Positions 37,305-57,748 of a stretch of 64,000 nucleotides of DNA are shown here, piece after piece. Position numbers and translations under genes: made by a program. This stretch comes from an uncultured Acidobacteriota bacterium. Lineage in GTDB: Bacteria; Acidobacteriota; Thermoanaerobaculia; UBA5066; Gp7-AA6. The stretch covers positions 328,005 to 392,004 of the forward strand of contig CAVTEW010000001.1 in assembly GCA_963733955.1 (NCBI GenBank), given 5' to 3'. A model generated the notes under the pieces. It saw only the letters and a list, made by a program, of their open reading frames with translations, did not search any database and was not told the DNA's origin. The stretch's first letter is position 1, and every line of letters starts with the position of its first letter.

Positions 37305-37317
37305 GGAGATTCCAGAT

Positions 37318-38927: not shown

Positions 38928-39007
38928 CCGAGTACGACGGCACGAGGAGTCCCCGGCAGAGTCAGAAGTCTCCCGCGTCCCTCCGTGTCCGCAGCGACGA
39001 GACGGAA

Positions 39008-39211: not shown

Positions 39212-39393
39212 GTCTTCCTCCTTGCCTGCGACCTGTAGAGCAAACCGCGGACCACCGGAGCCGAGGCCTGATTCCATTGAGCTTGCGCGTTCCGGCCTTT
39301 CGCGCTGCGGCGCAATTTGAGCCCATAAGGAGTCTCATCCTGCGACAACGCCCAGGACATCGCCGATCCTCGCGCCGGCGGTCCGCGCGGCGA

Positions 39394-40164
39394 TCAGCGC
39401 GGGTCGTAGGGCACCGCGGGCGCGATGCGGCCGGACCGGCAGGCGCGCTCGGCCGCGTGCGAGAAGACGTAAACGCCGGCCGGATCGCTCTGGCCGTGGT
39501 TGCCCCAGGCGCCTTCCTGGGACACGATCGCGATCGCGTTGTTGAAGAGATAGACGTTGTACCAGCCGTCCGAGTCGAAGCTCGCCCAACGGTTTCCCGG
39601 GTTGAGCGTGCCGCACTCCGCTGGACCGTAGGGCCGGTGCGTCGTCGAGACGCAGATCTCCTTCTTCTCGAGGTCGGCGCGATGGACGCAGACGAAATCG
39701 CCGACGAAATCCTCCGAGTCGTGGCAGGGGTAGGGCGTCACGCCGGAGGTGGGCCAGGACTTCACAGGCGCCAATCGGGAGAGGACTCCTTTCAAGTCCG
39801 GCGACGGCTCGGGGCTCTCCTCCATCGAGGGAAGAGCGGCGAAGTCCGCCGTTCGTACCCAGCCGTATTTCCGGCTGCCGCGCGCTCCGAGATAGACCGC
39901 GCACGCGAGCGGGTCCGGAGCCGCGTTCGGGCTCGGACGGCTCGCTTCCACCAGGTCGCCGAGCACGACGAAGCTCCTGAGCCTCTGGGGAGCGGCCGAT
40001 TCTTGCGCCGGCCGGGAATAGAAGTAGGCCCGCGCTTCCCGGGCCACCATCGGTTCGAAGAGATTTTCATCCTGCGTCTTGTCGCAGGGTTGTTCGGCTC
40101 GCGATGGAGCGGCCGTGCCAACCACCACCAGAAACGCCAGCCACAGGCGCCGTCGCGTTCTCAT
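39394..40164 (-). CDS. Secreted Cys-containing hypothetical protein.
   Basis: Signal peptide MRTRRRLWLAFLVVVGTAAPSRA. 8 Cys residues. No domain recognised. Confidence 0.45.
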   Translation of the reverse strand: MRTRRRLWLAFLVVVGTAAPSRAEQPCDKTQDENLFEPMVAREARAYFYSRPAQESAAPQRLRSFVVLGDLVEASRPSPNAAPDPLACAVYLGARGSRKYGWVRTADFAALPSMEESPEPSPDLKGVLSRLAPVKSWPTSGVTPYPCHDSEDFVGDFVCVHRADLEKKEICVSTTHRPYGPAECGTLNPGNRWASFDSDGWYNVYLFNNAIAIVSQEGAWGNHGQSDPAGVYVFSHAAERACRSGRIAPAVPYDPR

Positions 40165-40530
40165 GGCCGCATCCTGTCGCGGACATGTGGCGATCGCGTG
40201 GCATTTCGAAGACAAGATGGGGGCGCGGCCGTCGGGCTCTGCCGGGTCAGGTCTGCCCCCGGAACGTCAGGGATTCGCGGCGGCCGGCGCTTTCGACTCG
40301 ACAGCCTTCCCGCGGGGCGGCGCATGCTCGACGTACGTGTCGAACCAGCGCAGCTCCTCGTACGCCAGCTGCTCGTTGGACTCCATCGCCGCGCACCTGT
40401 GCGGTTCGTGCGCGGCGGTCCGCTGCCTGCCGCCATCGCCTCCCAGGTACGACGGACCCTCATCCATGTCCGCCAAAACCGTCTCCGCGCGGGATGTAGG
40501 CTATAAACGATCCAACGGGAGGAGTGAACG

Positions 40531-40713
40531 ATGGGCGACTACAGAATGCCCGAACCGCTTCGGTGCCCGAAAACGGGGCAGACCTGGAACATGCGCGTCG
40601 CCGATGACAAGCGCCTCGAGCTTATCCGGTGCGAAAGTTGCGGAGAGATGCACACGTTGAAGGACCTTCTCGAGGCGGGGAGCTCGAAGGTGCCGGTGAT
40701 CCCGACGCGCTGA
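40531..40713 (+). CDS. Small (60 aa) zinc-ribbon protein.
   Basis: GGGAGGAG RBS 7 nt before ATG. CPKTGQ...CESCGEM is a CxxxG...CxxC pair. Confidence 0.5.
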
Positions 40714-40736
40714 AAAGACCTCCCCCCCTCTTTCTC

Positions 40737-41153
40737 TCAGGACTTCGCTTTCTTCGAAGGTTTCGACTTGCCAAATCCGTTGAAGGCGACGGCCTGGCGA
40801 ACGAGCGCCTTGAAGGCGGACTCGTCTACGTCTTCTCCTTCGTGGATGTCGATCGCGCGGCGGACATGTCCGTCGAGACTCGAGTTGAAGAGACGGGCCG
40901 GATCCTTCAGGGACGCGCCCCTGGCGAAGGTGAGCTTCACGTGAGTCTTGTAGGACTCGCCGGTGCAGAGGATGCCGTCGTGCGACCAGACCGGATTCAT
41001 CCACTTCCACTCCTCGACGACGTCCGGGTCCGCCTTCTTGATGAGCTTGCGCATTCGGCTGAGGGTTGCCCCGCGCCAGTCCCCGAGCTCGGCGATTCTT
41101 TTCGAGATGAGCTCCGATGCCGGCTGACTCTGTTTCGCGTCCGACTTTTTCAT
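40737..41153 (-). CDS. DUF1801 (YdhG-like) domain protein.
   Basis: AGGAGGA RBS. Translation [76 protein letters not shown] matches the DUF1801 pattern. Confidence 0.7.
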
Positions 41154-41175
41154 GTTTTCCTCCTGGAAACCGCGA

Positions 41176-41598
41176 TCAAGCGTTCGCCGGCGCGGCCTGC
41201 TGGTTGCGCCAGAAGAAGTACGAGAGCCCCCAGAGCGCGCCGGTGCCCGCCGCCCAGGCCCACACCGCCGGGCCGTCGCCGACCGCAAAGTGGGCGATGA
41301 GCGCCGAGGCGAGGGTGATGGCGAAGCCGCCGTAGGCCCACTCCTTGAGTCGCGCCGGCACCGGCGCGAGCAACAGCACGACGCCGAGGAGCTTGGCCCA
41401 CGAGAGCTCCACCCGGAAGTAGGCGGGGAAGCCGAGGTGGGTGAACATCTCCGCCAACTGCGGCAGGCGCAGTTGCGCGTAGGCGGTGAAGCCCATCTGC
41501 AGGCAGAGGAGCGCGGTGACGGTCCAATAGACGATGGTCCTGGCTTTGACTGTGGTCCTGACGGCGGCGAGGGTCGGGTTCTGAAGGATCGATTCCAT
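41176..41598 (-). CDS. DoxX-like family membrane protein.
   Basis: Four TM helices. The sequence [50 protein letters not shown] is typical of DoxX_2. Confidence 0.65.
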
Positions 41599-41617
41599 GG
41601 GATTCCTCCTTTCCGGT

Positions 41618-42190
41618 TCAACTTTTCGGGGCGCTGGGCGGCCAACCTTGCGCCTCTACGCCGAACTGGTTCGCGTACTCCGCGTTCAATCGCTGCCAGC
41701 CGCCGAACTTGATGGCCTCGGGGCCGACCATGCGGCCGATGGGATCTCCGCCGAGCAGATGATCCAGGACGTCGAAGGAGATGTGCCACCCGGCGGCACC
41801 CATCGAGATGAAGCGGCGATCGATGTTGTGCCACAGCGTCAGGCGCGTGCCGCCGCCTGAGCCTTCGAGCTCCCACCGGATGTCCTGGCCGCCCCAGTTG
41901 AACTCGAGCAGCCTCGGCGCTTCGGCCCGCCTCACGGTGGTCTCGGAAACCACCGGCGTGGGCGCTCCCACCGTGGTGAGCTTCACCGTGGCTCCGGCCG
42001 TTCCCAGGCTCCCATCGGCATCGAAGGGTGCCCACTCGCGAAGATCCGCCGGGTCGGTCAGCGCACGCCAGACTTTTTCCGGCGGGTGGCGCAGGTCTCT
42101 GACGAGGACGAGCGTCCACTTCTCTCCGTCCTTTCGGACCTGGGCCCCGCGCGCCGGGCCCGGCGCGTACTGCTCGCGATCGGTCCTCAT
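41618..42190 (-). CDS. SRPBCC-superfamily protein (AHSA1 / activator of Hsp90 ATPase-like).
   Basis: GEKWTLVLVRDLRHPPEKVWRALTDPADLREWAPF... is the typical AHSA1 N-terminal signature. It is the usual operon partner of ArsR. Confidence 0.7.
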   Translation of the reverse strand: MRTDREQYAPGPARGAQVRKDGEKWTLVLVRDLRHPPEKVWRALTDPADLREWAPFDADGSLGTAGATVKLTTVGAPTPVVSETTVRRAEAPRLLEFNWGGQDIRWELEGSGGGTRLTLWHNIDRRFISMGAAGWHISFDVLDHLLGGDPIGRMVGPEAIKFGGWQRLNAEYANQFGVEAQGWPPSAPKS

Positions 42191-42200
42191 CCTCTTCTCC

Positions 42201-42599
42201 TTAGCGTGAAGAGCGTGCCAGCTGGGTCAGCTGAACGAGGTTGCCGCAGGTATCGTTCAGCATCGCAATGGTCGAGCCGGTCACGTCGGTCGGCGGCATC
42301 GTGAACGCGGCGCCGCGGGCCTTGATGCGCTCGTGGTCGCCCTTGATGTCGTCGGTGTCAAACATGGCTGCGGGCTGGCCCTGCTGAAATATCGCCTGCT
42401 GATACGCTTTGGCTGCGGGATTGTTGTTCAGCGCCAGCTGCAGCTGCGTGCCGTCCGGCTCCTCGGGCGAGGCGACGGTCAGCCAGCGAAACGGGCCCTG
42501 ACTGAAATCGGCTTTCTTGGCAAAGCCCAGGACCTCGGTATAGAAGCGCAGGGCCTTGTCCTGGTCGTCCACGTAGACGCTGGTCAATTTGATTTTCAT
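42201..42599 (-). CDS. VOC (glyoxalase/bleomycin-resistance) family protein.
   Basis: MKIKLTSVYVDDQDKALRFYTEVLGF... has the paired beta-alpha-beta-beta-beta module and a conserved His/Glu pattern. Confidence 0.75.
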   Translation of the reverse strand: MKIKLTSVYVDDQDKALRFYTEVLGFAKKADFSQGPFRWLTVASPEEPDGTQLQLALNNNPAAKAYQQAIFQQGQPAAMFDTDDIKGDHERIKARGAAFTMPPTDVTGSTIAMLNDTCGNLVQLTQLARSSR

Positions 42600-42979
42600 T
42601 TCGTTTCTCCTTTGTCACGTTTGCGGTTTGCGCTGCGTCCCCTTTTCCTGGTCTTCCTTGTCGTTGGGGTGGATCGATCCATGCGGTCGAGGTGGCGTTC
42701 GAGGGCATCGAGGTGAGCGGACCAGAACCTGCGGAACGGAGCCAGCCAGGCATCCAGCTCCTGAAACGGCTCCGGTTTCAGCCGGTAGAGACGGCGCTGT
42801 GCGTCGACCGTGGATTCCACGAAACCGGCCTCGCGCAGCACCCTCAGGTGCTTGGACACGGTCGGCTGCGGCATGCGAAGCTGACGCTCGATCGCACCGA
42901 CCGACTGCTGCGACGAGACCAGAAGGCCCAGGATCGCGCGACGGTTCGGCTCCGCGAGGATTTCGAAGACGGTCTCCAC
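42596..42979 (-). CDS. ArsR/SmtB family transcriptional regulator, first gene of a five-gene stress operon.
   Basis: GTG start at 42979. FEILAEPNRRAILGLLVSSQQSVGAIERQLRMPQPTVSKHLRVLREAGFV is the HTH_20 motif. ATGA overlap with the downstream VOC gene. Confidence 0.8.
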   Translation of the reverse strand: METVFEILAEPNRRAILGLLVSSQQSVGAIERQLRMPQPTVSKHLRVLREAGFVESTVDAQRRLYRLKPEPFQELDAWLAPFRRFWSAHLDALERHLDRMDRSTPTTRKTRKRGRSANRKRDKGETK

Positions 42980-42985
42980 GCTTCG

Positions 42986-43015
42986 AATATACTCATTAGC
43001 GCATATGCGTGTCAA
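42986..43015 (-). promoter_or_regulatory. Sigma70-type promoter of the arsR operon with an embedded 10-bp palindromic operator; likely leaderless.
   Basis: On the minus strand: TTGACA-N18-TATATT-cgaagc-GTG(start). The perfect palindrome CGCATATGCG (43000-43009) lies between -35 and -10. Confidence 0.6.
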
Positions 43016-43274
43016 GGCATATAAGGCCAGGCCGAAGTTCGAACATCCGGAGGCTCGTTTCAAGACCCTGGTCCTCCACGATGGCACCACGCCGTGAAAG
43101 CCGAAACTGCGTCCCCGGCGAGCCAAGCCGTTCCAGGGTAAGACATTGCCGGCCGCGCGCGCTTTCTGGCATCGAACGTGATCAGAGGCAGGCAGGCCGG
43201 AAGTCGAAGCGGAGCCGGCTGGCGGGGACCTTGCCCTGGAGAGAGGTCGGGCAGGTCCGAAAGGAAAGACCACA

Positions 43275-43444
43275 TGACGATCAGATCCGCGGGAAAGTCG
43301 ACGCGTAACGTGAAAGACCGCAAGGAAGTCAAGAATCTGCCGGTGAAAAGAACGAGCCTCCGTCAGTTCAAGAACGTCAAGGGCGGCTCCCGCCAATCGG
43401 CGCGTCACTTCAATGGGTTCGTGGGTCGCATCAGTAGCGGTTGA
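43275..43444 (+). CDS. Candidate leader-type peptide (56 aa) related to the 39008..39211 precursor, transcribed divergently from arsR.
   Basis: GGAAAG RBS 6 nt before ATG. Translation MTIRSAGKSTRNVKDRKEVKNLPVKRTSLRQFKNVKGG|SRQSARHFNGFVGRISSG. It shares KxLx(L/V)K(K/R)xT(I/S)LRx(L/F) and KNVK(A/G)G with peptide A. Confidence 0.4.
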
Positions 43445-43890
43445 GCGATGGGCTCTCCGAACGGCGTCCGGCCACCGCGGGACTCAAACGGGCTGGAGAC
43501 GCGGACGGGACCTTCAATGCCATCGATGAGCCGGTGGTGCGGGGCGGAAGCGACGTCGGCACAAGCAGCGTCTCGTTTCATCCCTTCAGGATCGCGAGAA
43601 AGGACCAGTAACTCCACTCGCTTTTCCCGGTCTGCGGGGGATCGTCCGGAACCGGCGCCCACTTTGCCGTAGACAGTCTCAACTCAATCGTGTCGTAGAA
43701 CGTTCTCCACAATGGCGCTTCGGAAGCGCGGGCCCGAGCGAGCGCAGGCTCCGTCCTCTGCGGACCAACTCGATTTCGAGGGTCCTGGCGGCGAGGACTT
43801 TCGCGGCCGGGGCTCACACTGCGGCGATTGTCAACGTGCAAGCCCCGGCGGCGCGAGACGTCGCCGCCGCAGTCGCTCGAAGCGGATCTT

Positions 43891-45645
43891 TCAGCGGCAG
43901 CCGTTCCTCCGGCGACACTGGTTGTAGATCTGGACGCAGAAGCGCGTGCTCGAGGGATCGCCGTCCATGCAGCTGTCCCGCTCGTCGCGGCAGGCCTTGC
44001 ACTCGGGCGGGGGAGGCGGCGGCGCGGGAATCTCGATCGGGTCGACCCGGGCAAAGTACACCGACAGGCCGGGCACGTCGGGAAGGCCCGCGGGCGCGGC
44101 CGCCGAGGCCCATGCGACGTAGGCGCGCCCTTGCGCGCAGGCGATGCCGTTGTAGTCGCCGAACTTGCCGCGGCCCTTGTCGTCCTTGGGAGGCAGGCAT
44201 GAGAGGCCGGAGGGGCAGCCTCCGTGAGAGAGATCGCATCGGGGAGTGCTCGCCCGAGGCGCAGGGCAGCCGCCGGTGCCGGCCTGGGCCCAGAACGGGC
44301 ACGGCAGGCAGAAGCCTGCGCGCTGCGGCTGCTGGGAACAGGCCGCGGCTTCCTCCTTGCCGCCGCCGCCAGGCCAGCCCGAATCGCACTGGCGATCGAT
44401 GGCGTCGGAGACCTCGACCTCGCCGAGGTCCGGTCCACCGACGAAGTACTCGGTGTTGTCGTTGTGGCTGCCGGTCCGGCTTCTGCGGTCGTACCAGCCC
44501 ACGAAGACCTTCCCCTGCGTCGCGCAGGCCCACGGATGGTAGCGTTCTCCCCGCGGTTCGAGGTTGACGACGCGCCGGCTGGGAAACTCCTCGTTTCGGG
44601 AGAGCGAAGTCACGTTGTCGGTCGACAGGAGCACCACGTCGTGGTTGCCCGGGCTCGTCTCGTCGGCGTAGGCGACGAAGACGCGGAGCGGGTCGTTCCC
44701 GTCGACGGCGACGGTCGGGCCCGCCAGGATGTTCCCGACGTTGCAGCGATCGAGTCCCGCGATGGTGTTGGAGCCCTCGCACTTGACGCCGGTGAAATGG
44801 CCGATGCGTGAGGGCGCGCTGCGCCCCGCCGAGTCCGTCCAGCGAGGCTGAAAGCCGAGATTGCAGGGACTGAACCGCTGCAGCAGGAGGTCGCCGTTCG
44901 TTCGGGCGGTCGCCGAGATGACGTAGACGAAGCCGTCCGGTCCCACGGTCGCTCGGGGATAGTCGCCGCGCCGCTGCGAAGGAGGCAGGTTTCTCTCCAC
45001 GCTCCGGCGAAGCCACGTCTTTCCGCCGTCGGCGGAGCAGCCGATCATGGAGAAGTAATCCGTGTCGTCCCGCTTGTTGCGCCAGGCGATGTAGATCTGA
45101 TCCTGGCCCGGCCTCCGGTCGCCGGCGAGGTGCGGTTGATCCGAGGTGCAGCGGCCGGCCGGGACGCACCGCGCGGGCCGCAGCGTCCGATTCTTCCCCA
45201 TCTTCCTGGCGGTGAAGAGGAACTTGTGTCCGTGCCGGGAGGAGGCGATGAGGCCGTCGGAGGCGCTTCCCATCGTGGCGAAATAGAATTTGCCCTTTCC
45301 CGTCCAGGCGAGCGATGGATCGCGTGACGAGTGCATTCCCTTCGGCAGGTCTTTGCCCTCGATCGGAACGAAGACCCCGGTCTCCCAGCGAAAGAGACGC
45401 TGCCGTGAGGGCGGGATGTCGAGGGCCCTCACGCCGTTGACGGCCAGCAGGATCTCGTTTCCGTCGCCCGAGACCGCCAGCTCGATCTCGCCCGGTCCCG
45501 GAACCACGAACCGGTGTTCGCTCGCCTCCAGGCTCATGTGAGTCTGCGCCGATGCGGAGAGCGCCAGCAGGACGAGCGCGACGCCGACCGCCGGCCTTGC
45601 GGATCTCGGGAACCGGGCCACATTCCGCCCTGGAAGGAAAGACAC
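43891..45645 (-). CDS. Secreted BNR/Asp-box repeat (sialidase-like beta-propeller) protein with a Cys-rich C-terminal region.
   Basis: Signal peptide ...VGVALVLLALSASAQT. BNR motif SADGGKTW. Propeller-like repeats. C-terminal ~120 aa contain many Cys (CLPCPFW...CKACRDERDSC...). Confidence 0.55.
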   Translation of the reverse strand: MSFLPGRNVARFPRSARPAVGVALVLLALSASAQTHMSLEASEHRFVVPGPGEIELAVSGDGNEILLAVNGVRALDIPPSRQRLFRWETGVFVPIEGKDLPKGMHSSRDPSLAWTGKGKFYFATMGSASDGLIASSRHGHKFLFTARKMGKNRTLRPARCVPAGRCTSDQPHLAGDRRPGQDQIYIAWRNKRDDTDYFSMIGCSADGGKTWLRRSVERNLPPSQRRGDYPRATVGPDGFVYVISATARTNGDLLLQRFSPCNLGFQPRWTDSAGRSAPSRIGHFTGVKCEGSNTIAGLDRCNVGNILAGPTVAVDGNDPLRVFVAYADETSPGNHDVVLLSTDNVTSLSRNEEFPSRRVVNLEPRGERYHPWACATQGKVFVGWYDRRSRTGSHNDNTEYFVGGPDLGEVEVSDAIDRQCDSGWPGGGGKEEAAACSQQPQRAGFCLPCPFWAQAGTGGCPAPRASTPRCDLSHGGCPSGLSCLPPKDDKGRGKFGDYNGIACAQGRAYVAWASAAAPAGLPDVPGLSVYFARVDPIEIPAPPPPPPECKACRDERDSCMDGDPSSTRFCVQIYNQCRRRNGCR

Positions 45646-45782: not shown

Positions 45783-47261
45783 CTACCTGCATCGCAGCGC
45801 CGCGGTCGGCGCGATGCGGGAGGCTTTGCGGGCGAAGAAATAGGCGGCCCGCATCGTCGCGAGGACCATCGCCGGCACGACGATGAGATAGACCGTCAGG
45901 TCGACGCTGCCGTTGAACAGCATCGAGTTCATGAGGCGTTCGAGCGCGAACCCCATCACGAGCCCGATCACCGTCCCCGTCGCCACGAGGACGAGACCCT
46001 TGCCCATCATGAGGCGGACGACGTCGAAGGGCCTCGCGCCGATCGCCATGCGGATGCCGATCTCCCGCGTCCGGCGGCTGACGTTGTATGCCACCAGGCC
46101 GTACAGCCCAGCGATCGCGAGCACGAGGCCGATCGCTCCGAGCATCGCGACCACCGTCACCGCCAGGCCCGGTCCCTCCACCGCGGCGTAGCGGTAGAGA
46201 TCCTGATAAAACCTCGCTTCGACCAGAGGCATGTTGGGGTCGAGGGTCCGGACGGCGTTCTGGACGGGCTCGAGCGACTGGAGCGGGTCGCCGGTCGTAC
46301 GCACGAGCAGGACCAGCCGGGCGACGGGATGCTGTAAGAGAGGCAGATACACGAAGTCGACCGGACGGTCCGGTAGGGCGCTGTACTTGATCGTCTTCGC
46401 GACGCCGACGATCTCGACCGCCTGTGTCGTCACGGAGGCCGCGGCAGACCCGGCCAGCCGGAACCGCTTCCCGACGGCGTCCGCGTTGGGCCAGTCCCGG
46501 CCCGGCACCTGGTCTTCTTGGTCCAAGAAGCCGCGGCCGATCGCCGGCTCGACGCCGAGAACCCGGAAGTAGTTGCCGGAGACGAGCACGCCGGCTCGGA
46601 CGGCCGCCGTGGCCCGGGCTCGGCGCTGTAGCCGACGGCGGCGGGGAACGTGCTGGCCACGACGCCGTCGTAGCTCCTGGTCTGGCCGCGGATGTCGAGG
46701 TACTCGCGGTACGAGAAGTTCGCGAAGCGATTGTCGCGGGACGTGCTCACCAGGGTCATGACGCCGTGGGGTCGGCGACCGGATACGGCCGGAAGATCAG
46801 AGCATCGAGCACGGCATCGCCGTCATCCCGATCCCCAGCGCGATCGTGACCACCACGACCACGGTCAGCCCGGGCGCCCGGCGCAGGCTCCGAACCGCGT
46901 AGCGCACGTCGTCCCCGAAGTCCGTCAGCCAGTGAATGCCGCGCGCGTCCCGGATCTCCTCTTTCCGCTGGTCCAGCCCGCGCATCGCGCGCAGGGCGCG
47001 CCGGCGCGCCTCGTCCGGCGAGAGCCCGGCGGCGACCCCCTCGTCGATCTTGTGCTCCAGGTGGAACAGGAGCTCACCAGTGCTCGACGCGCAGGACGAC
47101 GACTCGATCCTCGGTGCCTTCAGGCCTCGGAAAGCGCGACGACGGACGAGATGGCCGACGACAGGCGCTGCCAGTTCGCCGTCTCCGTGTCGAGCTGCCT
47201 CCGGCCCAGGCGGGTGAGCGAGTAGAACTTCGCCCGCCGGTTGTTCTCCGTCTGCTTCCAC
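45783..47261 (-). pseudogene. FtsX/MacB-type ABC transporter permease (ADOP-related, PadR-associated), disrupted by two compensating frameshifts.
   Basis: N-terminal cytoplasmic part plus TM1 (..RRALRAMRGLDQRKEEIRDARGIHWLTDFGDDVRYAVRSLRRAPGLTVVVVVTIALGIGMTA) runs in one frame to a stop at 46797. The conserved NRFANFSYREYLDIRGQTRSYDGV segment is in another frame (46759-~46600). The VSGNYFRVLGVEPAIGRGF...FtsX domain...ALRCR end is back in the first frame (46589-45783). Confidence 0.5.
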
Positions 47262-47455
47262 TCGGCCTTGATCCAGCCTTCCTGCTCCAGCTTGTGCAGG
47301 GCAGGGTAGAGAGACCCCTCGCTGACCTGCAGCACGTCGGAAGAGAGGGATCGCAGACGGAGGCTGATGGCCCAGCCGTGCAGGGGCTGGAGCGCGAGGA
47401 TCTTGAGAAGCAGCAGATCCAGAGTGCCCTGGACGAGATCGGCTGGTTTGCTCAT
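47120..47455 (-). CDS. PadR family transcriptional regulator.
   Basis: MSKPADLVQGTLDLLLLKILALQPLHGWAISLRLRSLSSDVLQVSEGSLYPALHKLEQEGWIKAEW is the PadR winged-HTH signature. It is upstream of the FtsX permease, the ADOP-type arrangement. Confidence 0.8.
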   Translation of the reverse strand: MSKPADLVQGTLDLLLLKILALQPLHGWAISLRLRSLSSDVLQVSEGSLYPALHKLEQEGWIKAEWKQTENNRRAKFYSLTRLGRRQLDTETANWQRLSSAISSVVALSEA

Positions 47456-47464
47456 GCGCGTTGA

Positions 47465-47519
47465 CTCATATATCGGTCTCCGAGGGGAGTCTACGGCCGT
47501 GTCCTCTCGGTAAGCAAGG
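47465..47519 (-). promoter_or_regulatory. Conserved ~55-nt hairpin element, copy A, immediately upstream of the padR start and overlapping the 3' end of aar.
   Basis: Plus-strand sequence ctcatatatcggtctCCGAGGGGAgtctacggccgtgTCCTCTCGGtaagcaagg. It has a 9-bp inverted repeat with one G-U pair, and is ~85% identical to 49525-49582. Confidence 0.55.
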
Positions 47520-48701
47520 AGAAGTCCGGCCGCCCGTCGCTGCGGACCCGAGTCGGGCGATGCGATCGCCGCACAGTCCCTGATCGTTGAAGAACGGCGC
47601 GAGCGCGAATCCGTGTTTTCCGGCGAGAGCCCAGATCTCGTCGACCTGGCCGGGCGAAATGTCGCCCCGGCCGCGGGAGTAGGACTCGCACCGTCCTTCG
47701 AGCGCCAGAAGCATCCCCTCGAGAAGGCAGCCCTGAACGATGTTGGGCGCCGGATGAGGCGCCAGAACGGGGAGCAGGTCGGGGACGAGCTGCAGTCCCC
47801 CGAGGACCTGGCCCATTCCACCGAAGAAAACAATCGGCCGCGGGCCGGGCGACTCGTCCCCATCCCCATCCGCGAGAACATTCTTGGGATAGCCCGCGTC
47901 GCAGACGATCGCGTCCGCACGGACGGATCGCAGCGAAAAGCGGGGCGCGGACAGACTCGCCGCCGCGATGATGATGTCCGCCTCGGGCAGACGCTCCTCC
48001 GGATCGGTCGAGATCGAGACGGCCGTGTCGTCCGAAGCGAAGGCGGACGTCAGCGCTCGCTGGAGTTTCCGCAGGCGGTGCGGATTGCGGGCGCAGAGGA
48101 GGAGGCGCCCGGCCCGGCCCAGGAGATAGCGCGCGCAGCCGGAGCCGACGTCCCCGGTCGCGCCGAGAATGAGGATGGACTGCGAGCCGAGGAACCGCCC
48201 GGCGAGCGCGGACGCCCGCTCGATCGCCTTCACGATGTAGGCGACGGTCAGGGTGTTTCCCGTCGTGAACGCCACGTCCTCGTGGGAGGGAAGGAGGTCG
48301 ACCTTCCCCTCCAGAACGATCGAGCTGAAGCCGCCGAGGGCGGCGACGGCCGCTCCCTCCCTCCGGGCGCAGTCGGCCGCCTCGCGGATCCGCTGGACCT
48401 TCTCCCGCACGGATCCCTGGCCGTCGTCGAGTCCGTCGGGCGCGAGGAACGCGTCCACGTAGACGCCGTGAGCACGCGATCCGTTGGTCGAAAACACCGT
48501 GACGCGGCAGACGGTGCGTGGAGGCAGGTACGGCACGATCTCGCGGATGTCGCGCGCCGAAATGGGCCGGCCGCTCTCGCCCCGCAGCGTCCGGACCACG
48601 GCGGCGGTCTTTTCCCAGCTGTCGAGGTGACCGATGAGCGCGAACCGCGCGGCGGCCGGGCGGCGATCCCCCCGTGGGGCGGTCGCGCCGGCGGGCTTCA
48701 C
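47466..48701 (-). CDS. aar: Long-chain acyl-[ACP] reductase (aldehyde-forming), cyanobacterial AAR type.
   Basis: FALIGHLDSWEKTAAVVRTL (compare MFGLIGHLTSLEQA), GGFSSIVLEG, FTTGNTLTVAYIV, LGATGDVGSGCARYL (NAD(P)-binding) and DAGYPKN all align with cyanobacterial AAR. GTG start overlaps the ado stop (GTGA). Confidence 0.7.
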   Translation of the reverse strand: MKPAGATAPRGDRRPAAARFALIGHLDSWEKTAAVVRTLRGESGRPISARDIREIVPYLPPRTVCRVTVFSTNGSRAHGVYVDAFLAPDGLDDGQGSVREKVQRIREAADCARREGAAVAALGGFSSIVLEGKVDLLPSHEDVAFTTGNTLTVAYIVKAIERASALAGRFLGSQSILILGATGDVGSGCARYLLGRAGRLLLCARNPHRLRKLQRALTSAFASDDTAVSISTDPEERLPEADIIIAAASLSAPRFSLRSVRADAIVCDAGYPKNVLADGDGDESPGPRPIVFFGGMGQVLGGLQLVPDLLPVLAPHPAPNIVQGCLLEGMLLALEGRCESYSRGRGDISPGQVDEIWALAGKHGFALAPFFNDQGLCGDRIARLGSAATGGRTSPCLPRGHGRRLPSETDI

Positions 48702-49459
48702 ACCGGCAAGCGCGTGATCCACTGCAGCGTCTCCTCTCCGGGGAGGCCGACTCGGTCGAGAGACTTCAGATAGAGGTTGATCGCCCCGCCGCGGAGCCGG
48801 ACGATGTCCAGATTCACTTGGGGCAGAGACGGCTTGATGCAGGTCTTTCCACAGAGGAGGCAATCCCCGCGGATGTCCTCCCGCGCCACCATCTCCGCCA
48901 GGACGGACATCACGTTCTCGTGAACGGCCGCGACCTTCTCCCGGAGTCCGACGGGATCGCGCCGGTAGACCTCGGAGAGCAGCTCGATGGCATGCTCGAG
49001 GTGTTCCGTCTCCTCGGCGGCGACCGCCTTGTACGCCCGCCCGAGCCTGCCGGGCGCGACGCGCGCCACAGCCGAGTACATGGAGACGGCGAAGGACTCC
49101 AGCATCAGCTCCTGGATGATCAGGCACGACGTGAAGTCGCCGCGCCCGGCGCTCTGCACGAAGGCGGATCGGATGCGCTTCCAATAGGGCGCGTTCACGT
49201 TCAGCGTCACGCAGAGGCCCATCTCCTCGCCCAGGCGCTGGAACGAGCGGGCGTGCGCCTTCTCCCTCGCCGCGTGCTCGAGGGCTTCGATCTTGTCGTC
49301 CGCGCTCTCGTAGAGATCGACGAGGCTCGCGAAGTTCATCATCCCGACGAGCTCGCCGGTGGCGGACTGAGAAAGAATGCTTTCCCAAACACGGTGCGCC
49401 TCCGCGCCCGCCGGCAACGGATCGCCGGGTATCCCTGACGTCCCTTTCATCGCTTCCAT
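48698..49459 (-). CDS. ado: Aldehyde-deformylating oxygenase (ferritin-like di-iron fatty aldehyde decarbonylase), ADO type.
   Basis: Di-iron ligand motifs are at the spacing expected for ADO: EALEHAAREKAH (ExxH) and AAEETEHLEHA (ExxH). TSCLIIQELMLESFAVSMY is analogous to ADO TPTCLLIQALLIEAFAISAY. Length ~250 aa. GGAGGAGGAG RBS upstream of the ATG. Confidence 0.7.
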   Translation of the reverse strand: MEAMKGTSGIPGDPLPAGAEAHRVWESILSQSATGELVGMMNFASLVDLYESADDKIEALEHAAREKAHARSFQRLGEEMGLCVTLNVNAPYWKRIRSAFVQSAGRGDFTSCLIIQELMLESFAVSMYSAVARVAPGRLGRAYKAVAAEETEHLEHAIELLSEVYRRDPVGLREKVAAVHENVMSVLAEMVAREDIRGDCLLCGKTCIKPSLPQVNLDIVRLRGGAINLYLKSLDRVGLPGEETLQWITRLPV

Positions 49460-49524
49460 CGCTTCCACGTCTCCTCCTCCCGCCCGTCGAAGTCGGGACA
49501 ATCGGGCTCGGGCCCTCCCGGAGC

Positions 49525-49582
49525 CTCACTTTTATCGGTTTCCGAGAGGAGTGTGCGGCGGCGTCCTCTCGGTAAGCAAGGG
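49525..49582 (-). promoter_or_regulatory. Conserved ~55-nt hairpin element, copy B, in the leader region upstream of ado.
   Basis: Plus-strand sequence ctcacttttatcggttTCCGAGAGGAgtgtgcggcggcgTCCTCTCGGtaagcaagg. It has a 9-bp perfect inverted repeat and shares the flanking tatcggt and taagcaagg with copy A. Confidence 0.55.
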
Positions 49583-49687
49583 GTGCATAAAGACGAGTAC
49601 GGAACCGGGAGCCGGAGGTTTCGGGAAAAGCGAGCGGGACCGGGCCGGCCTCAGCCTGGGTCGGATCCCATCCTCCCGGGGGGCGGA

Positions 49688-50701
49688 CTACAGGATTCGC
49701 TCGGAGACTCGGCTTGGCCCCGCTTCCGGGGCTTTCTCGCGCTGGCCGGCCTTGTCCCTTCGATACGCGGCCGGCGGCAAGCGGTACTCGCGCTTGAAGG
49801 CCCGATTAAAGGCCGCTTCGGACTCGTAGCCAACGTCCGACGCGATCTGTGCCACGCCCTGGCTCGTGGCGGCGAGCGCGCGGGCTCCCAACTGAAGCCG
49901 CCATCGCGTCAGATAAGCCATCGGAGGCTGACCCAGGAAGTGCCGGAAGCGCTCCGAGAGCACTGTCCGCGACAGGCCGGCCTCCCGCGCCAGTTCGGCA
50001 ACCGTCCACGGATGCGCGTGCCGATGGTGGAGCAGCGTCAGCGCTCTGCCGACCGCCGGATCGCGGGCGCCCGCGAGCCACCCGGTTTGCCCTTCCGGAA
50101 GCTGCCGGACGTACTTGCGAAGCGTCTCGGCAAAGACGGCCTCCGAAAGCCTCGCCAGCATCGCGTCCGCTCCGGCCTCGCGGTTCGCGGCTTGAGTGAC
50201 GGAGAACCTCAGGGAATTTTCCAGCCATTGTCCCGACGGATCGTCGCGGATATTGACCTTGATGAGGGGCGGCAGGCCACCGAGGAACGCCTGGCTCAAT
50301 TGGGGATCGCAGACCAGGAAACCGCAGATGAACCGGCATGACGCGCCGCCGCCGCCAAAGCGCAGCAGCCCCAGGCCGCGTTTGAGAATGCCCGGAAGGG
50401 CGGCGCCGGCATCGATCGGGGTCACGCAACCGCCGCTGCCCAGCACGTGTCCATGGCCGTGCGGAAACGTGACGAGGTCGCCGGCGGAAAGGTCGACGCG
50501 TTCCCCTTCCTCCAGCTCCACGTAAGCCCGGCCTTCGCTGAGAAGGTGGTAGATGATCACGTGACCGGCCTCTCGCGCGAGCATGGGCGCGATCGCGCGC
50601 GACTGCGGCGACAGGAGGCACCACGGCTCGGAGAACTCCACGTTGAAGAAGATGGCCGAGTCGAGCTTGATGGCGCGAAGAACTTCCGGAAGAGCGTCCA
50701 T
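49688..50701 (-). CDS. AraC family transcriptional regulator (N-terminal cupin sensor plus C-terminal HTH_18).
   Basis: Cupin His motif VTFPHGHGHVLG. C-terminal WTVAELAREAGLSRTVLSERFRHFLGQPPMAYLTRWRLQLGARAL...VGYESEAAFNRAFKREY is the AraC HTH. Confidence 0.8.
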   Translation of the reverse strand: MDALPEVLRAIKLDSAIFFNVEFSEPWCLLSPQSRAIAPMLAREAGHVIIYHLLSEGRAYVELEEGERVDLSAGDLVTFPHGHGHVLGSGGCVTPIDAGAALPGILKRGLGLLRFGGGGASCRFICGFLVCDPQLSQAFLGGLPPLIKVNIRDDPSGQWLENSLRFSVTQAANREAGADAMLARLSEAVFAETLRKYVRQLPEGQTGWLAGARDPAVGRALTLLHHRHAHPWTVAELAREAGLSRTVLSERFRHFLGQPPMAYLTRWRLQLGARALAATSQGVAQIASDVGYESEAAFNRAFKREYRLPPAAYRRDKAGQREKAPEAGPSRVSERIL

Positions 50702-50867
50702 CGAAGTGCGGAGTCTACAACCGCCTTGTCGGCGTCTCCGCTAAGAATCCCGAACGACGAATCAAGCCGAGAGCACGCGCCGGCGCCTCGGTCAAGCAAA
50801 CCGGACGCGCGGGTAACAACTTCAGCGCCGGCGTGGCGCAGAGTCGGCGCTCGAGGAGGAATCACCA

Positions 50868-51701
50868 ATGAGCGCCACAGTCACCACCGCGGCGGCCGCG
50901 GAGATCGACGCCCTGAAGACCCGTCTCAAGGCCACCTGGATGGCCGGCAACTACGACTACTTCTCCCGATTCATGGAGTCGAGCGCGGTCGATTTCCTGG
51001 ATCGATTGGGTGTCGAGGCCGGAGCCTCGCTGCTCGACGTTGCCTGCGGCTCGGGCCAGCTCGGTCTCATCGCAGCGCGTCGGGGCATGCGGGTCACCGG
51101 GATCGACATCGCCAGCAACTCCATTCTGGCCGCGCGCGGCCGCGCCGCCTCCGAAGGACTCGACGCGCGCTTCGACGAGGGAGACGCGGAGGACCTGCCC
51201 TACACGGACGCGAGCTTCGACGTGGTCGCCAGCATCTACGGCGCGATGTTCGCGCCGCGCCCCGAACTCGTGGCGGCCGAGATGCTGCGCGTGTGCCGGC
51301 CGGGCGGCACGATCGCCATGGCCAACTGGACCAGGGAAGGGTTCGTCGGAAAGATGTTCAAGACCTTCGCGCGCTTCCTCGCGCCTCCGGGCATGCCTGC
51401 GCCGGCCCTCTGGGGAGACGAGAGCGTCGTGCGCGAGCGGTTTGGCGCGGGGCTCTTCGACCTGCGGCTGACGCGCGTGTGCTATCGGTTCGACTATCCG
51501 TTTCCGCCGGCCGGGGTCGTGGAGTTCTTCCGCGAGCACTACGGTCCGTCCACGCGCGCCTTTGCCACGCTCGGGGAAGCCGAGGGAGCGACGCTCCGCA
51601 GAGAGCTGACCGATCTGTGGTCTTCGCACAATCAGGCCAACGACGCCTCCCGCACGATCGTCGAGGCGGAGTATCTCGAAGTTGTGGGCGTCCGCGCGTG
51701 A
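50868..51701 (+). CDS. Class I SAM-dependent methyltransferase (Methyltransf_11/25-like).
   Basis: LLDVACGSGQLGLIAARRGMRVTGIDIA is SAM-binding motif I; motif II/III region is VCRPGGTIAMANW. Divergent from the AraC gene. Confidence 0.75.
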   Translation: MSATVTTAAAAEIDALKTRLKATWMAGNYDYFSRFMESSAVDFLDRLGVEAGASLLDVACGSGQLGLIAARRGMRVTGIDIASNSILAARGRAASEGLDARFDEGDAEDLPYTDASFDVVASIYGAMFAPRPELVAAEMLRVCRPGGTIAMANWTREGFVGKMFKTFARFLAPPGMPAPALWGDESVVRERFGAGLFDLRLTRVCYRFDYPFPPAGVVEFFREHYGPSTRAFATLGEAEGATLRRELTDLWSSHNQANDASRTIVEAEYLEVVGVRA

Positions 51702-53550: not shown

Positions 53551-54120
53551 ATGGCCCTCACCGCCGGAACGCGCCTCGGCCCGTACGAGATCCTGACACC
53601 CCTCGGAGCGGGCGGAATGGGAGAGGTCTATCGCGCTCGGGACGGCCAGCTCGGCCGCGACGTCGCCATCAAGGTGCTCCCGGAGGCCGTCGCGCAGAAC
53701 GCCGCGGCTTCCGTCTTTTCGCCGAACGGCCGGTGGCTCGCCTACTGTGTCCTATCCGCCCCCGACAGCCCTTCGCAGGTACTGGTCCGGCCGCTCACGG
53801 GCGGGGGAGGCAAGATCCAGATCACGTCGGACCAGGGAACGTTCCCGGTGTGGACAGACAAGGAGCTCATCTTCCTGGCCGACCGGCAAGTCGTCGCCGT
53901 CGAGGCGCAGACCCAACCGACGTTCCATGCCGGTCCGCGGCGCGATCTTTTCGAGACGCCGTACGACCGCGGCGCCTTGCCGCTGCGAAACTACGACGTC
54001 ACGCGGGACGGCCAGCCGTTCGTGTTCGTCAAGGACGCGTCCGGTCGGGTCCGGAAGCGGATCGACGTGGTGCTCAACTGGTCGGGCGAGGTCGCGAAGG
54101 ACGCGCCAGCGAAGAGGTAG
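53551..54120 (+). pseudogene. In-frame internal-deletion remnant of a Ser/Thr protein kinase - TolB-like beta-propeller protein.
   Basis: First 40 aa are the kinase glycine loop and VAIK lysine ([37 protein letters not shown]). The sequence then jumps directly into the C-terminal end of a TolB-like propeller (SPNGRWLAY...FVFVKD...[12 protein letters not shown]). The catalytic loop, DFG/APE and most propeller blades are absent. Confidence 0.5.
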
Positions 54121-54252
54121 GGCCTGGACCAAACGCGGCGAGCCGGTCGGGCGCGCCCGTTGTCGATCGCGGAGCGCGGGATTCCACGGCGCAAAGTTTG
54201 CAAGCGGGTCTCTGGTTATCGCTTAGGTCCTGGTTGACACAAGGAGGTCAAA

Positions 54253-54750
54253 ATGGCGAAAGCAAAGAGCGCGGTCCCCAAAGGGTTCCACACGGTGACG
54301 CCGCAGCTCACCCTCGAGAACGCGGCGCAGGCGATCGATTGGTACAAGAAAGCGCTCGGTGCGGAAGAGGTCACGCGGGCCGTGGGCCCCGACGGGCAAA
54401 TCATGCACGCGGAGTTGCGTATCGGAGATTCGCTCGTCATGTTGAACGACGCGATGGGCGGCGGCAAGGGTCCCAAGGCGATGGGCGGCTCGCCGGCATC
54501 GCTGTGGGTCTATGTCGAGGATTCCGACGCCCTGTTCCGGCGCGCCGTCGCCGCAGGCGGGCAGGTGCTTCCCGGGCCGATGGGGGCAATGGCAGACCAG
54601 TTCTGGGGCGATCGCTCCGGGACGTTCACCGACCCGCACGGCTACCGCTGGACGATCGCGACTCGCAAGGAAGATCTTTCGCCGCAGGAGATGGACCGGC
54701 GGCAGAAGGAGTGGATGAAGCAGTTCGCGCCGCAGCCGGTCCATAGCTAG
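54253..54750 (+). CDS. VOC family protein (PhnB-like glyoxalase fold).
   Basis: AAGGAGG RBS. HTVTPQLTLENAAQAIDWYKKALGAEEV...GDSLVMLNDA matches the PhnB/3-demethylubiquinone-9-MT-like VOC pattern. Confidence 0.7.
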   Translation: MAKAKSAVPKGFHTVTPQLTLENAAQAIDWYKKALGAEEVTRAVGPDGQIMHAELRIGDSLVMLNDAMGGGKGPKAMGGSPASLWVYVEDSDALFRRAVAAGGQVLPGPMGAMADQFWGDRSGTFTDPHGYRWTIATRKEDLSPQEMDRRQKEWMKQFAPQPVHS

Positions 54751-55100
54751 GCCCGTCGCCGCAGGCGAGCCCGCGCGTCGCTCTCACGGTGATGCTCACG
54801 GCGGCGTCCTGCGGGCGGCGCTGCGCTGAGGTTACGGGATCGACTTACGGTCGATCGGCCCGAAGCGGTCCTGCCCGCGCCGACGGGCTCGCAGCGGCGA
54901 TCGAGCGCCGGCTGGTGAAGAGGAAGGCGGATCCCGCCGACGTCGAGCCCTCCAGACTCGACGATCTGGCGCAACGGGCTGCGAAGCGCAAGCCGGCCGG
55001 CGCCGAGAAGTCGTTGTGAAAAACAAAGGACTGAGCCCGATCCTCTACTGCCGGAGTGTGATTTGGAACGATCCCGGGACTTCGGGGTCTTCCCGCGTGA

Positions 55101-56471
55101 TCAAAGAGCTCCCAGCCGCTCCCCGATCAGCCGGTCGGCACGGGCGAAGTCGACCTCGTCGAGGCTCGCCGCCCGGCTCGTCAACGCGTCGAGGATTTCC
55201 TCCTGAATCACTCCCCGCCGCTTCGCCTCGGCATAGGGAATGGTGTGGAACATCACCATCGAATAGCGGGGGATGAAGCGGCCGGGGTGCCTCTCTTCGA
55301 GGCGAAAGGAAAGGTCCTTCTTCAACTGAAACCTCGGCTCCCGGACGGTCGACCGCATCTCCACGTAGTTCTCCAGGGCCATGTCGGCGATCGCGTCGGT
55401 ATTGGGCCGGCGGCGCGCTTCGAATTCTGCGAAGACCTCGTTCCACGGCCGATTCGGATCCGCCAGACATCGATCGAAGGCGCTGCAATCTTCGAACGCC
55501 GCGTTCATGCCCTGCCCGTGAAAGGGAACGATCGCGTGCGCGGCATCTCCCAGCACGAGGGCGTGATCCTCGAACGACCACGGCGCGCAGCGGATCGTCT
55601 CCAGGTGGCCGGTGGGATTTCCGAAGAAGTCCTCGAGGAGGCCGGGCATGAGCGCGATCGCGTCGCCAAACCGGCGTTCGAAGAGCGCGAGAGCGGCCTC
55701 GGGAGTCGTCAGGGCCTGAAAACTTTCTTCTCCCCGATTCGGCAGAAACAGGGTCGCCGTGAAGCTGCCGTCGGTGTTGGGAAGCGCGATCAGCATGTAT
55801 TCGCCTCTCGGCCAGATGTGCAACGCGTTCTTCTCCATCCGAAACTGCCCGCCTGGCGCCGCGGGGATCGAGAGCTCCTTGTAGCCGTGGCCGAGCGGCT
55901 CCTCGTTGAGGCGTCCGCCCGTCCGTTCCAGAATTGCGGCGCGAACCGCCGAGGCGCTTCCATCCGTCCCGATGAGGACGTCGTAGGGCGTCGTTTGCGG
56001 CTCGGGACTCTCACCGGCTAAGAAGCGCACCAGGCGGTGCGCGAAGTCGACGCCGCAGACCGTCTCTCCGAAGCGGATCGAGACTCGGCCGGTCGAGTCC
56101 GCGGCATCCAGAAGCAGCGTGTTCAGGCCCGCACGCGAGACCGAGTAGATGACTTCATGCGGCTTGTTTCCGTACGGAACGAGCTTGAGACGTCCTTCCT
56201 CGTCGTGAAGCATCCTCCCCACCATCGGAATGAGCTCGGCGCGGACGCTCTCCATCACGCCGACCTCTTCGAGCGCCGCGATGCCGCGGTTGGCGAGCGC
56301 GAGATTGATGGAGCGCCCGGCTGATGTCGCCGCCGCCGGCTTCCGGGGATCGGGGCGGCGCTCGAGGAGCGTCACGCGGTGCCCGCGCCGAGCCAGGAAG
56401 ATCGCCAGGAGCGAGCCGGCGAGACCGGCGCCGACGAGCATGATCCGGGAGGTATCGCGGGGTGTTCTCAC
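55101..56471 (-). CDS. kmo: Kynurenine 3-monooxygenase (FAD-dependent).
   Basis: IMLVGAGLAGSLLAIFLARRGHRVTLLERRPDP is the FAD GxGxxG motif; also RSINLALANRGIAAL, DGSASAVR, GDAAHAIVPFHGQGMNAAFED and the KMO-specific C-terminus FIPRYSMVMFHTIPYAEAKRRGVIQEEIL. Confidence 0.85.
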   Translation of the reverse strand: MRTPRDTSRIMLVGAGLAGSLLAIFLARRGHRVTLLERRPDPRKPAAATSAGRSINLALANRGIAALEEVGVMESVRAELIPMVGRMLHDEEGRLKLVPYGNKPHEVIYSVSRAGLNTLLLDAADSTGRVSIRFGETVCGVDFAHRLVRFLAGESPEPQTTPYDVLIGTDGSASAVRAAILERTGGRLNEEPLGHGYKELSIPAAPGGQFRMEKNALHIWPRGEYMLIALPNTDGSFTATLFLPNRGEESFQALTTPEAALALFERRFGDAIALMPGLLEDFFGNPTGHLETIRCAPWSFEDHALVLGDAAHAIVPFHGQGMNAAFEDCSAFDRCLADPNRPWNEVFAEFEARRRPNTDAIADMALENYVEMRSTVREPRFQLKKDLSFRLEERHPGRFIPRYSMVMFHTIPYAEAKRRGVIQEEILDALTSRAASLDEVDFARADRLIGERLGAL

Positions 56472-56668
56472 AGGGGCGCTCGGAGGCTACACCGAAACGG
56501 AAGCCCCCTCGCCCGTCCGCCTCAGCTCTTCGAGTTGGCGCAGGAACCGGGGTCGAGCTGAAAATCATTTGCCAATTGGTTCCGATGTCCGACTTGGGTC
56601 AGGGGCTCTTCTGCCAATACATGAATTCAGCGTTGACCCCAATTGGGCCACGGTTAGTCAACAACCTC

Positions 56669-57748
56669 TCAGGACCGGGGAGGCACGACGGTTGATCGAA
56701 CCGGCCTCGGCACACGCCGGATCGGAGCCCTGGCCGGGATGGGAAAATCGAGGCGACCGATCTTCCCTGCCGCAGTCGGGCTGAACGAGAGGTTGCCGGC
56801 AGTCTCGGTGAACCAGACGGCGCCCTCCGGCCCGATCGCGATGCCGTATGGCTGGCTGCCCGGCGTCGGAATGGGAAACTCGGTGATCTCGCCCGAAGGG
56901 GTGATCCGTCCGATCTTGTTGCCTTGCATCTCGGTGAACCACAGTGCGCCCGATTCTGCGGTGATGGCGCCGGGCATGCTGTCGGGCGTGGGAATGCGGA
57001 ACTCGGTAATCACGCCCGCGACTGTGATCCGACCGATTCGATTCGCGGCTGTCTCCGTGAACCACAGGTGGCCGTCCGGGCCGACGGTGATCCTCAGAGG
57101 CTCGCTCTGGGGCGGAACGGGAAACTCGGTCAGGTGTCCGTCGGTCGTGATGCGTCCGATGCGGTCGGCATTGCTCTCCGTGAACCAGAGCGCGCCATCC
57201 GGTCCGGCCGCGATCCCCCATGGATGGATCTGATAAGACACTCCGGTCAGATCAAAGAGCTCGAAGCGTCCGGCAGCAGTCATCCGACCGACCTGACCGC
57301 CATCCCACTCCGTGAACCAGAGGTTTCCATCGGAACCGACCGCGAGTTCCAGCGGCCCGTCCTCCTCGAAGAACGCCCCGGCAGGCCCGAACTCCGTGAT
57401 CTGTCCGTCCAACGTGATCCGTCCGATCTTGTCCGCGAAGCCTTCGGTGAACCAGATAGCCCCATCCGGCCCGAGCGTGATCCCTCCCGGCTCGCACTTT
57501 GACGTCGGGACGGGATACTCCGAGAGAGTCCCGGACGTCGTAATTCGCCCGATCCGGTTACCTCTCAGCTCCGTAAACCACATCGCACCGTCCGGACCGG
57601 CTGTCAGGTTCCAGGGAACGCTGTGCGGATCAGGGACGACATATTCAGTGATCGTCTGGGCGAGAGTGTTTCCCGGGAAGCAGAAGACGAGGGCCAGAGT
57701 CAGCGTTACGAGCAGGCTGGTTGGCAGGAGAGACGCTTCTTTGCTCAC
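56669..57748 (-). CDS. Secreted virginiamycin-B-lyase (Vgb)-like beta-propeller protein.
   Basis: Signal peptide followed by 7 repeats of the ...GP(D)GA(L/I)WFTE..N(R/K)IGRIT..G...E(F/Y)..P hallmark of the Vgb/streptogramin lyase family. Confidence 0.7.
   Translation of the reverse strand: MSKEASLLPTSLLVTLTLALVFCFPGNTLAQTITEYVVPDPHSVPWNLTAGPDGAMWFTELRGNRIGRITTSGTLSEYPVPTSKCEPGGITLGPDGAIWFTEGFADKIGRITLDGQITEFGPAGAFFEEDGPLELAVGSDGNLWFTEWDGGQVGRMTAAGRFELFDLTGVSYQIHPWGIAAGPDGALWFTESNADRIGRITTDGHLTEFPVPPQSEPLRITVGPDGHLWFTETAANRIGRITVAGVITEFRIPTPDSMPGAITAESGALWFTEMQGNKIGRITPSGEITEFPIPTPGSQPYGIAIGPEGAVWFTETAGNLSFSPTAAGKIGRLDFPIPARAPIRRVPRPVRSTVVPPRS

Follow-up and report, generated by a model that had tools for sequence, protein, structure and literature searches.

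A conserved, uncharacterized variant of the AAR/ADO gene pair in Thermoanaerobaculia and other non-cyanobacterial lineages

We analyzed a 64,000-nucleotide stretch of DNA from an uncultured Acidobacteriota bacterium (Thermoanaerobaculia; UBA5066; Gp7-AA6), positions 328,005 to 392,004 of contig CAVTEW010000001.1 in assembly GCA_963733955.1, hereafter called the window. Its minus strand carries two adjacent genes, ado (48698 to 49468), coding for a ferritin-like di-iron oxygenase related to aldehyde-deformylating oxygenase (ADO), and aar (47466 to 48701), coding for a 411-residue NAD(P)H-dependent acyl-thioester reductase related to acyl-ACP reductase (AAR). ADO and AAR make up the textbook cyanobacterial alkane route, a workhorse of biofuel engineering whose use is limited by the very low turnover of ADO and the need for an external ferredoxin system. 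The ado-aar pair of the window is a real, conserved and uncharacterized variant of this two-enzyme system. The interpretation that we favor, by a modest measure of confidence, is that the locus is the native Thermoanaerobaculia copy of an ancient, uncharacterized sister family of AAR/ADO, under PadR control, and that its products would convert an acyl thioester to an aldehyde and then to an alkane and formate.

A first-pass annotation, made from the letters alone, had described the locus as a cyanobacterial-type alkane module and suggested horizontal acquisition. Both open reading frames (ORFs) that it proposed exist on the minus strand, in the same order and with the same coupling as in cyanobacteria: the TGA stop of ado (48700-48698) and the GTG start of aar (48701-48699) share the four bases GTGA. 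Only the start of ado probably has to be moved. As the homologues begin with V-E-A and a Shine-Dalgarno sequence, GGAGGAGGAG, read from the sequence at 49480-49471 (feature 49471 to 49480, minus strand) and conserved upstream of ado in the related locus L008, precedes the GTG at 49468, translation probably begins there, three codons upstream of the ATG at 49459 chosen earlier, yielding 256 rather than 253 residues. The 5′ end of the gene also contains a tandem 9-nt duplication (49448-49465, minus strand; two copies of GAAGCGATG), which is translated as EAM-EAM and makes the protein three codons (EAM) longer than its closest homologues.

Homology of the first protein to ADO was evident at several levels. 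It matched the Pfam family PF11266 (Ald_deCOase) with 49.2 bits against a gathering score of 28, although the alignment covers just two thirds of the model, and a phmmer search of the PDB returned ADO chains only, with E values down to 5e-11. Matches to PF02915 were weak. The AlphaFold model (mean predicted local distance difference test score, pLDDT, 93) adopts the eight-helix ferritin-like fold of cyanobacterial ADO (cADO; EC 4.1.99.5; PDB 2OC5, 4RC5 and 6JZU_B). Its top 26 fold matches in the PDB were all ADO chains, with TM scores (target) of 0.80-0.87, typically ~0.85, a root mean square deviation of ~2.4 Å and 18-22% identity; PaaA, the next fold, followed far behind. The six di-iron ligands, E36, E66, H69, E121, E150 and H153, align with identical residues of cADO and do not vary among 34 family members and the cyanobacterial representatives. 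The peptides on which the first-pass annotation had relied, TSCLIIQELMLESFAVSMY and the ExxH motifs E66-K-A-H69 and E150-T-E-H153, are all present. The aromatic pair of helix 3 is shared with cADO, as is the helix-4 motif C-L-x-I-Q-x-x-x-x-E-x-F-A-x-x-x-Y, whose residues C112, Q116, A124 and Y128 are common to the family and to true cADO, and four functional residues of cADO have equivalents in F43, Q116, Y128 and E149, whereas Arg62 has none.

The second protein aligned end to end (residues 20-366) with the Synechococcus elongatus AAR (PDB 6JZQ; EC 1.2.1.80) in a phmmer search of the PDB (E = 5e-29). Residue C325 corresponds to the catalytic C294 of that enzyme; C325 and the dinucleotide-binding motif GATGDVG (G180-x2-G183-D184-x-G186) are invariant in 22 family members. 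The peptides FALIGHL, GGFSSIVLEG, FTTGNTLT, GATGDVGS and DAGYPKN, cited earlier as signs of AAR homology, were all found, in agreement with the GATGD(I/V)G, TTGNT and DxGYPxN motifs of cyanobacterial AAR. The best PDB match of the structural model (pLDDT 85) was AAR (6JZU_A; Foldseek E = 3e-26, TM 0.85), at 28-29% identity. Unlike the cyanobacterial enzyme, the AAR-like protein has N- and C-terminal extensions and an insertion, at about residues 275-290, where model confidence is low. Related folds occur in the thioester-reductase domain of PigE (PDB 4PPM; E = 4e-16 by sequence, and 88 bits to the PigE N-terminal domain family) and in the "TAD" domain of carmabin (PDB 9E4S; Foldseek E = 1e-17). 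Their existence shows that aldehyde release by the AAR fold is not confined to alkane synthesis, but both belong as domains to larger natural-product enzymes, are less similar to the window protein than AAR is and have no ADO-type partner.

Both proteins are thus genuine but distant homologues, not orthologues, of cyanobacterial ADO and AAR: they share fold and catalytic residues at only about 20% and 29% identity, and both fall short of the NCBIfam equivalog cut-offs, scoring 50.0 bits against 222.65 for TIGR04059 and 129.7 against 449.7 for TIGR04058. Conversely, a bona fide cADO representative (P0360) reached 389 bits on TIGR04059 but just 70 bits on a profile of the window family. The homology claimed in the first-pass annotation is therefore upheld, but the label "cyanobacterial-type" is not.

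When one genome of each GTDB species was scanned, the ADO-like family was found in at least 335 non-cyanobacterial species (335 encoding stretches). The closest relatives (82-90% identical) belonged to Thermoanaerobaculia and other Acidobacteriota metagenome-assembled genomes (MAGs), and carriers, which are non-phototrophs, included Acidobacteriaceae, Bryobacterales, Planctomycetota (Schlesneria), Bacteroidota, Verrucomicrobiota, Gemmatimonadota and Ignavibacteriales/Ignavibacteria. One Bacteroidota carrier, Algoriphagus zhangzhouensis DSM 25035 (locus L068), is in culture. Metagenomes yielded about 120 clusters of relatives, the best 90-91% identical, many of which are labeled "fatty aldehyde decarbonylase" by automatic pipelines. 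A search with the family profile retrieved only 221 representatives among 1.84 billion proteins. The statement that the module hardly occurs outside cyanobacteria thus holds for the canonical clade only, not for the family.

To assess linkage, we used 80 loci fetched from the 335 GTDB stretches (designated L below) and judged adjacency where enough downstream DNA was available. In almost every adequate locus, across six phyla, ado was followed by aar within a few dozen bases, as cADO genes are in cyanobacteria directly upstream of the reductase gene. The exceptions were L030, in which no aar was found, and L016, whose aar is 1.3 kb distant and on the other strand; the two genes of L024 are separated by a redoxin-like ORF. 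The ado-aar pair is the universally conserved unit of these loci.

A feature that sets the family apart from cADO is an insertion of ~14 residues between helices 6 and 7, which is present in every non-cyanobacterial subfamily and corresponds to a gap in the cyanobacterial enzymes. In the core family it reads (H/D)-C-x2-C-x3-C-x-K; in the window protein it comprises C200-x2-C203-x3-C207 and K209, with Asp at the variable fourth ligand position. Two sister subfamilies have four Cys in the loop, and a 280-aa subfamily and one fused to a methyltransferase have a two- or three-Cys variant. The arrangement suggests that the loop binds an Fe-S cluster or another metal. As its fourth position can be His, Asp or Cys, we read it as more like an Fe-S or redox-metal site than a purely structural one. 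The ADO reaction consumes four external electrons, for which the cyanobacterial enzyme depends on external ferredoxin, and a built-in electron-entry center is therefore an attractive reading of the loop. Rubrerythrin offers a functional analogy only, in that it combines a ferritin-like di-iron site with a built-in Cys-ligated electron-delivery center (a Cys4 iron center); the metal at the window loop is putative, and rubrerythrin is a peroxidase whose center lies in a C-terminal rubredoxin domain with two CxxC pairs rather than in an internal C-x2-C-x3-C loop. More speculatively, the non-cyanobacterial ADO-like proteins could form a distinct class with a Cys-ligated Fe-S or metal center next to the di-iron site, either as self-contained or differently reduced deformylases, which would provide an unrecognized route to alkanes in soil heterotrophs (Acidobacteriota, Planctomycetota and Bacteroidota, for example), or as the start, together with the AAR-like reductase, of a new lipid pathway whose later steps in other lineages would fall to DUF3419, GNAT and desaturase enzymes; this is a tentative proposal, to which we attach a good deal less confidence than to the favored interpretation of the locus.

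The scheme proposed below builds on what is established, namely homology, fold and catalytic residues for the AAR-like protein and ligands and fold for the ADO-like protein. Transcription would probably start at a PadR-type promoter/operator element upstream of ado, with co-regulation by the padR product. The AAR-like protein would take an acyl chain, presumably from acyl-ACP or acyl-CoA, onto Cys325 and use NAD(P)H, held at the GATGDVG motif, to reduce the thioester, releasing a fatty aldehyde. The translationally coupled ADO-like protein, with two irons held by E36, E66/H69, E121 and E150/H153, would then process the aldehyde oxidatively with O2. By analogy, the likeliest outcome would be C1-C2 scission, giving a Cn-1 alkane and formate, with electrons probably entering through the family-specific Cys loop and its putative Fe-S cluster or metal. 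By analogy, then, the pair may plausibly produce hydrocarbons.

The candidate regulator is encoded immediately downstream. The padR-family gene (47120 to 47455, minus strand; PF03551, 77 bits) begins 10 nt after the aar stop, and PadR genes 91-93% identical follow aar in L007 and L008. We found two copies of a ~55-nt element on the minus strand. Copy 1 (49526 to 49581) contains the inverted repeat TTACCGAGAGG...CCTCTCGGAAA and is separated by ~45 nt from the downstream Shine-Dalgarno sequence of ado; copy 2 (47471 to 47519) lies within the 3′ end of aar, just upstream of padR, so that the last ~17 aar codons pass through it and it encodes the C-terminal tail of the AAR-like protein. The copies are 88% identical over 49 nt, and the window contains two exact copies of the 18-mer CTTGCTTACCGAGAGGAC, for which chance predicts 0.04 occurrences. 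The conserved element, which includes the inverted repeat, reads CCCCTTGCTTACCGAGAGGA-N10-TAGACTCCyCTCGGAAACCGATATG. The element directly precedes padR start codons in four other genomes (L007:7872, L008:7845, L042:9535 and L061:5750) and is found upstream of a GntR-ABC...ado-aar operon in L001:3260 and L004:1239. It is probably a PadR promoter/operator, with the PadR of the window as the likely regulator acting on both copies, and its duplication before ado and padR suggests co-regulation of the two by that protein. A scan for sigma-70 promoters over 47000-50900 gave no hit, and the lack of consensus hexamers in the element counts against a promoter function; for this reason we infer that function rather than assert it. 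A terminator scan of the same region gave chance-level candidates only, inside aar, and Rfam and tRNA scans of the window gave no matches, arguing that the element is not a known RNA family.

The genes around the pair differ among its closest relatives. In L004, L005, L007-L009 and L011, the operon consists of genes for a GntR regulator, an ATP-binding cassette (ABC) ATPase, an ABC-2 membrane protein, a TPR protein, a DUF4386 protein and a DinB-like protein, followed by ado and aar; in L007 and L008, padR and the gene for a MacB/FtsX permease of 902 aa come after this long operon. About 40 Acidobacteriaceae loci have a shorter version, GntR-ABC-membrane-ado-aar. Comparison of window positions 49469-49600 with L004:1220-6000 showed that the six genes located between the element and ado in the relatives are missing from the window, which implies a deletion of ~4.7 kb and suggests that this event joined the element to the ribosome-binding site of ado. 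On the other side of padR, the MacB/FtsX-type ("ADOP") permease gene (45783 to 47123, minus strand; PF02687, 54 bits on the C-terminal part) has ~445 codons instead of the 902 residues encoded in L007 and L008. Its reading frame is interrupted by a stop near 46797 and shifted at around 46600-46800, where the frame-1 translation shows a stop and then out-of-frame sequence, and tblastn with the 902-aa protein of L008 matched only two parts of it. It is apparently a degraded pseudogene or the product of an assembly error. The PadR and FtsX-type neighbors named in the first-pass annotation were thus recovered, as was an AraC/cupin regulator detected with Pfam, and the Acidobacteria-like context that it described is that of an acidobacterial genome.

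A recent transfer of the pair from cyanobacteria, as first suggested, would account for the shared gene order and coupling and would agree with the description of ADO as "unique to cyanobacteria" (PMC3903477). This is very hard to maintain given the low identity to the cyanobacterial proteins, the failure of both to reach the equivalog cut-offs, the occurrence of the family in at least 335 other species and the loop insertion that cADO does not have. In a neighbor-joining tree, the sequences grouped by taxon; the window protein was placed beside L004 inside a Thermoanaerobaculia clade, and cADO stood on a long separate branch. The composition is likewise unremarkable: GC content and GC at third codon positions (0.66 and 0.87 for ado, 0.70 and 0.84 for aar) match those of the neighboring genes and the GC content is flat across the region. 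The ratio of nonsynonymous to synonymous substitution rates (dN/dS) relative to three relatives was 0.12-0.18 for ado and 0.16-0.25 for aar, so that both genes, at 0.12-0.25 overall, are under purifying selection. On these grounds (tree, composition and selection), recent import from cyanobacteria is not supported, and the pair has been passed down vertically in this class. The same data bear on whether the window copy is a decaying remnant that has lost its function along with the six genes before ado and the integrity of the adjacent permease. No homologues of the GntR, ABC ATPase, ABC-2, TPR, DUF4386 and DinB proteins of L004-L011 were found in the 64-kb window, the permease carries a stop and a frameshift at half its normal length, and the aar ORF continues into the padR element, all of which would fit such decay. 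Nevertheless, both ORFs are intact with all catalytic residues in place, the Shine-Dalgarno sequence and the upstream element have been kept directly before ado, and L008 shows the same overlap of the aar tail with the element. Pseudogenization of the pair was rejected in view of the intact ORFs, the dN/dS values and the retained Shine-Dalgarno sequence, and we consider a remnant improbable.

A more serious alternative is that the same folds serve other chemistry, with the pair at the center of a pathway to a lipid or signal molecule, so that the product is a functionalized lipid rather than a hydrocarbon. The AAR-like protein would make an aldehyde or handle another thioester, the ADO-like protein would catalyze hydroxylation, desaturation or another C-C cleavage, and the lipid would be elaborated in other lineages by enzymes of the DUF3419 (BtaA-like aminocarboxypropyl transfer), GNAT and desaturase types. 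Several observations point in this direction or weigh against the alkane interpretation. In about 20 of the 80 loci, the pair belongs to a GNAT - ado - aar - DUF3419 (BtaA-like) set, with or without FA_desaturase, which spans five phyla (in Bryobacterales, Bacteroidota, Verrucomicrobiota, Gemmatimonadota and Ignavibacteria) and occurs in addition in the Thermoanaerobaculia locus L015 (examples are L068:4896-9779 from A. zhangzhouensis, L022:3400-8934, L056, L016, L032 and L015); its GNAT acyltransferase has 350-400 residues and a membrane FA_desaturase is usually present. A different ADO-like subfamily also adjoins DUF3419 in L084, and methyltransferase-ADO-like fusion proteins exist. If the end product were an inert alkane, the linkage to these genes would be difficult to explain, and the set is possibly a lipid pathway that has not yet been described. 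Within the protein, Arg62 of cADO is not kept and aligns with the variable position A68. Near the metal site, helix 1 has polar Q31/S32 where cADO has the hydrophobic I27/V28, which we take to be tunnel positions. The core family also has three additional invariant histidines, H62, H156 and H180, which may cluster, as reasoned from helix geometry alone (H156 and H180 are equidistant from the turn between helices 5 and 6, and H62 is one turn from E66). Both proteins lie below the equivalog thresholds, and a literature search did not find a characterization of any member of the ADO/AAR-like family. Finally, a precedent exists in BioE, an ADO-like ferritin-like di-iron oxygenase of biotin synthesis in Weeksellaceae, which cleaves acyl-CoA or acyl-ACP at C7-C8 rather than aldehydes, showing that ADO-like enzymes can oxidize acyl thioesters in mid-chain (PMC12704756).

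BioE resembles the window protein as a non-cyanobacterial di-iron enzyme with cADO as its closest characterized relative (~20% identity; ligands E26/E53/H56/E125/E155/H158; PMC12704756); it acts on long acyl chains, and a GntR-family regulator is found in some genomes. In contrast, its glutamate ligands of helices 2 and 4 are 72 residues apart by the published ligand numbering, compared with 55 here, and it is encoded in bio operons (bioFDBA, with the MocR-type BioL) and needs no AAR-type reductase partner, whereas the window pair is surrounded by PadR, FtsX, AraC and methyltransferase genes rather than bio genes. BioE was also not among the listed matches of the ADO-like family profile. Because ligand spacing and operon context differ, we conclude that the window protein is not a BioE. 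The wider proposal of a functionalized lipid is countered by the retention of most tunnel and second-sphere residues of cADO. In addition, DUF3419, GNAT and desaturase genes were not found in the window or in its closest relatives, and only the ado-aar linkage is universal. We therefore regard such a lipid pathway as possible, with a chance that should be taken seriously but that stays well short of even, and retain aldehyde deformylation by a native pair as our working interpretation.

The outcome matters beyond this locus, as the family is a widespread sister group, carried by heterotrophs that abound in soil and fresh water, and has kept the catalytic core, added a Cys-rich loop and retained the reductase partner in almost every locus. 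A metagenome survey credited Flavobacteriaceae with alkane production on the basis of annotated decarbonylase/ADO genes, with no biochemistry (PMC10176705), and a later survey took the same approach, screening MAGs for KEGG K14331, again with no biochemistry (PMC13170169). If the family makes hydrocarbons, it would give a biochemical basis to estimates of non-phototrophic alkane production drawn from K14331 matches and a new enzyme scaffold to engineers. If it makes another product, a new lipid pathway would emerge and the conclusions of K14331-based surveys would need correction. The cultured carrier A. zhangzhouensis DSM 25035 makes the question of the product directly testable.

Several further observations concern the margins of the family and of the window. 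Three metagenomic proteins of 561-605 aa (P0273, P0298 and P0307) combine an N-terminal class I SAM methyltransferase with a C-terminal ADO-like di-iron domain and represent another uncharacterized branch of the superfamily. An apparent ADO-AAR fusion of 538 aa (P0277) was rejected as Rosetta-stone evidence, being a garbled, frameshifted read-through. The gene context of the distant subfamilies rests on contigs of about 1.5 kb; in one of them (L084:3-1532), P0257, from a four-Cys subfamily, lies between the DUF3419 gene and a gene fragment whose HPFFFEHPLDH motif resembles the AfsA-type (butyrolactone synthase) hotdog domain. Within the window, the GC content is 0.63-0.66 at about 33000-44000 and 54000-64000, compared with about 0.70 in the first 33 kb.

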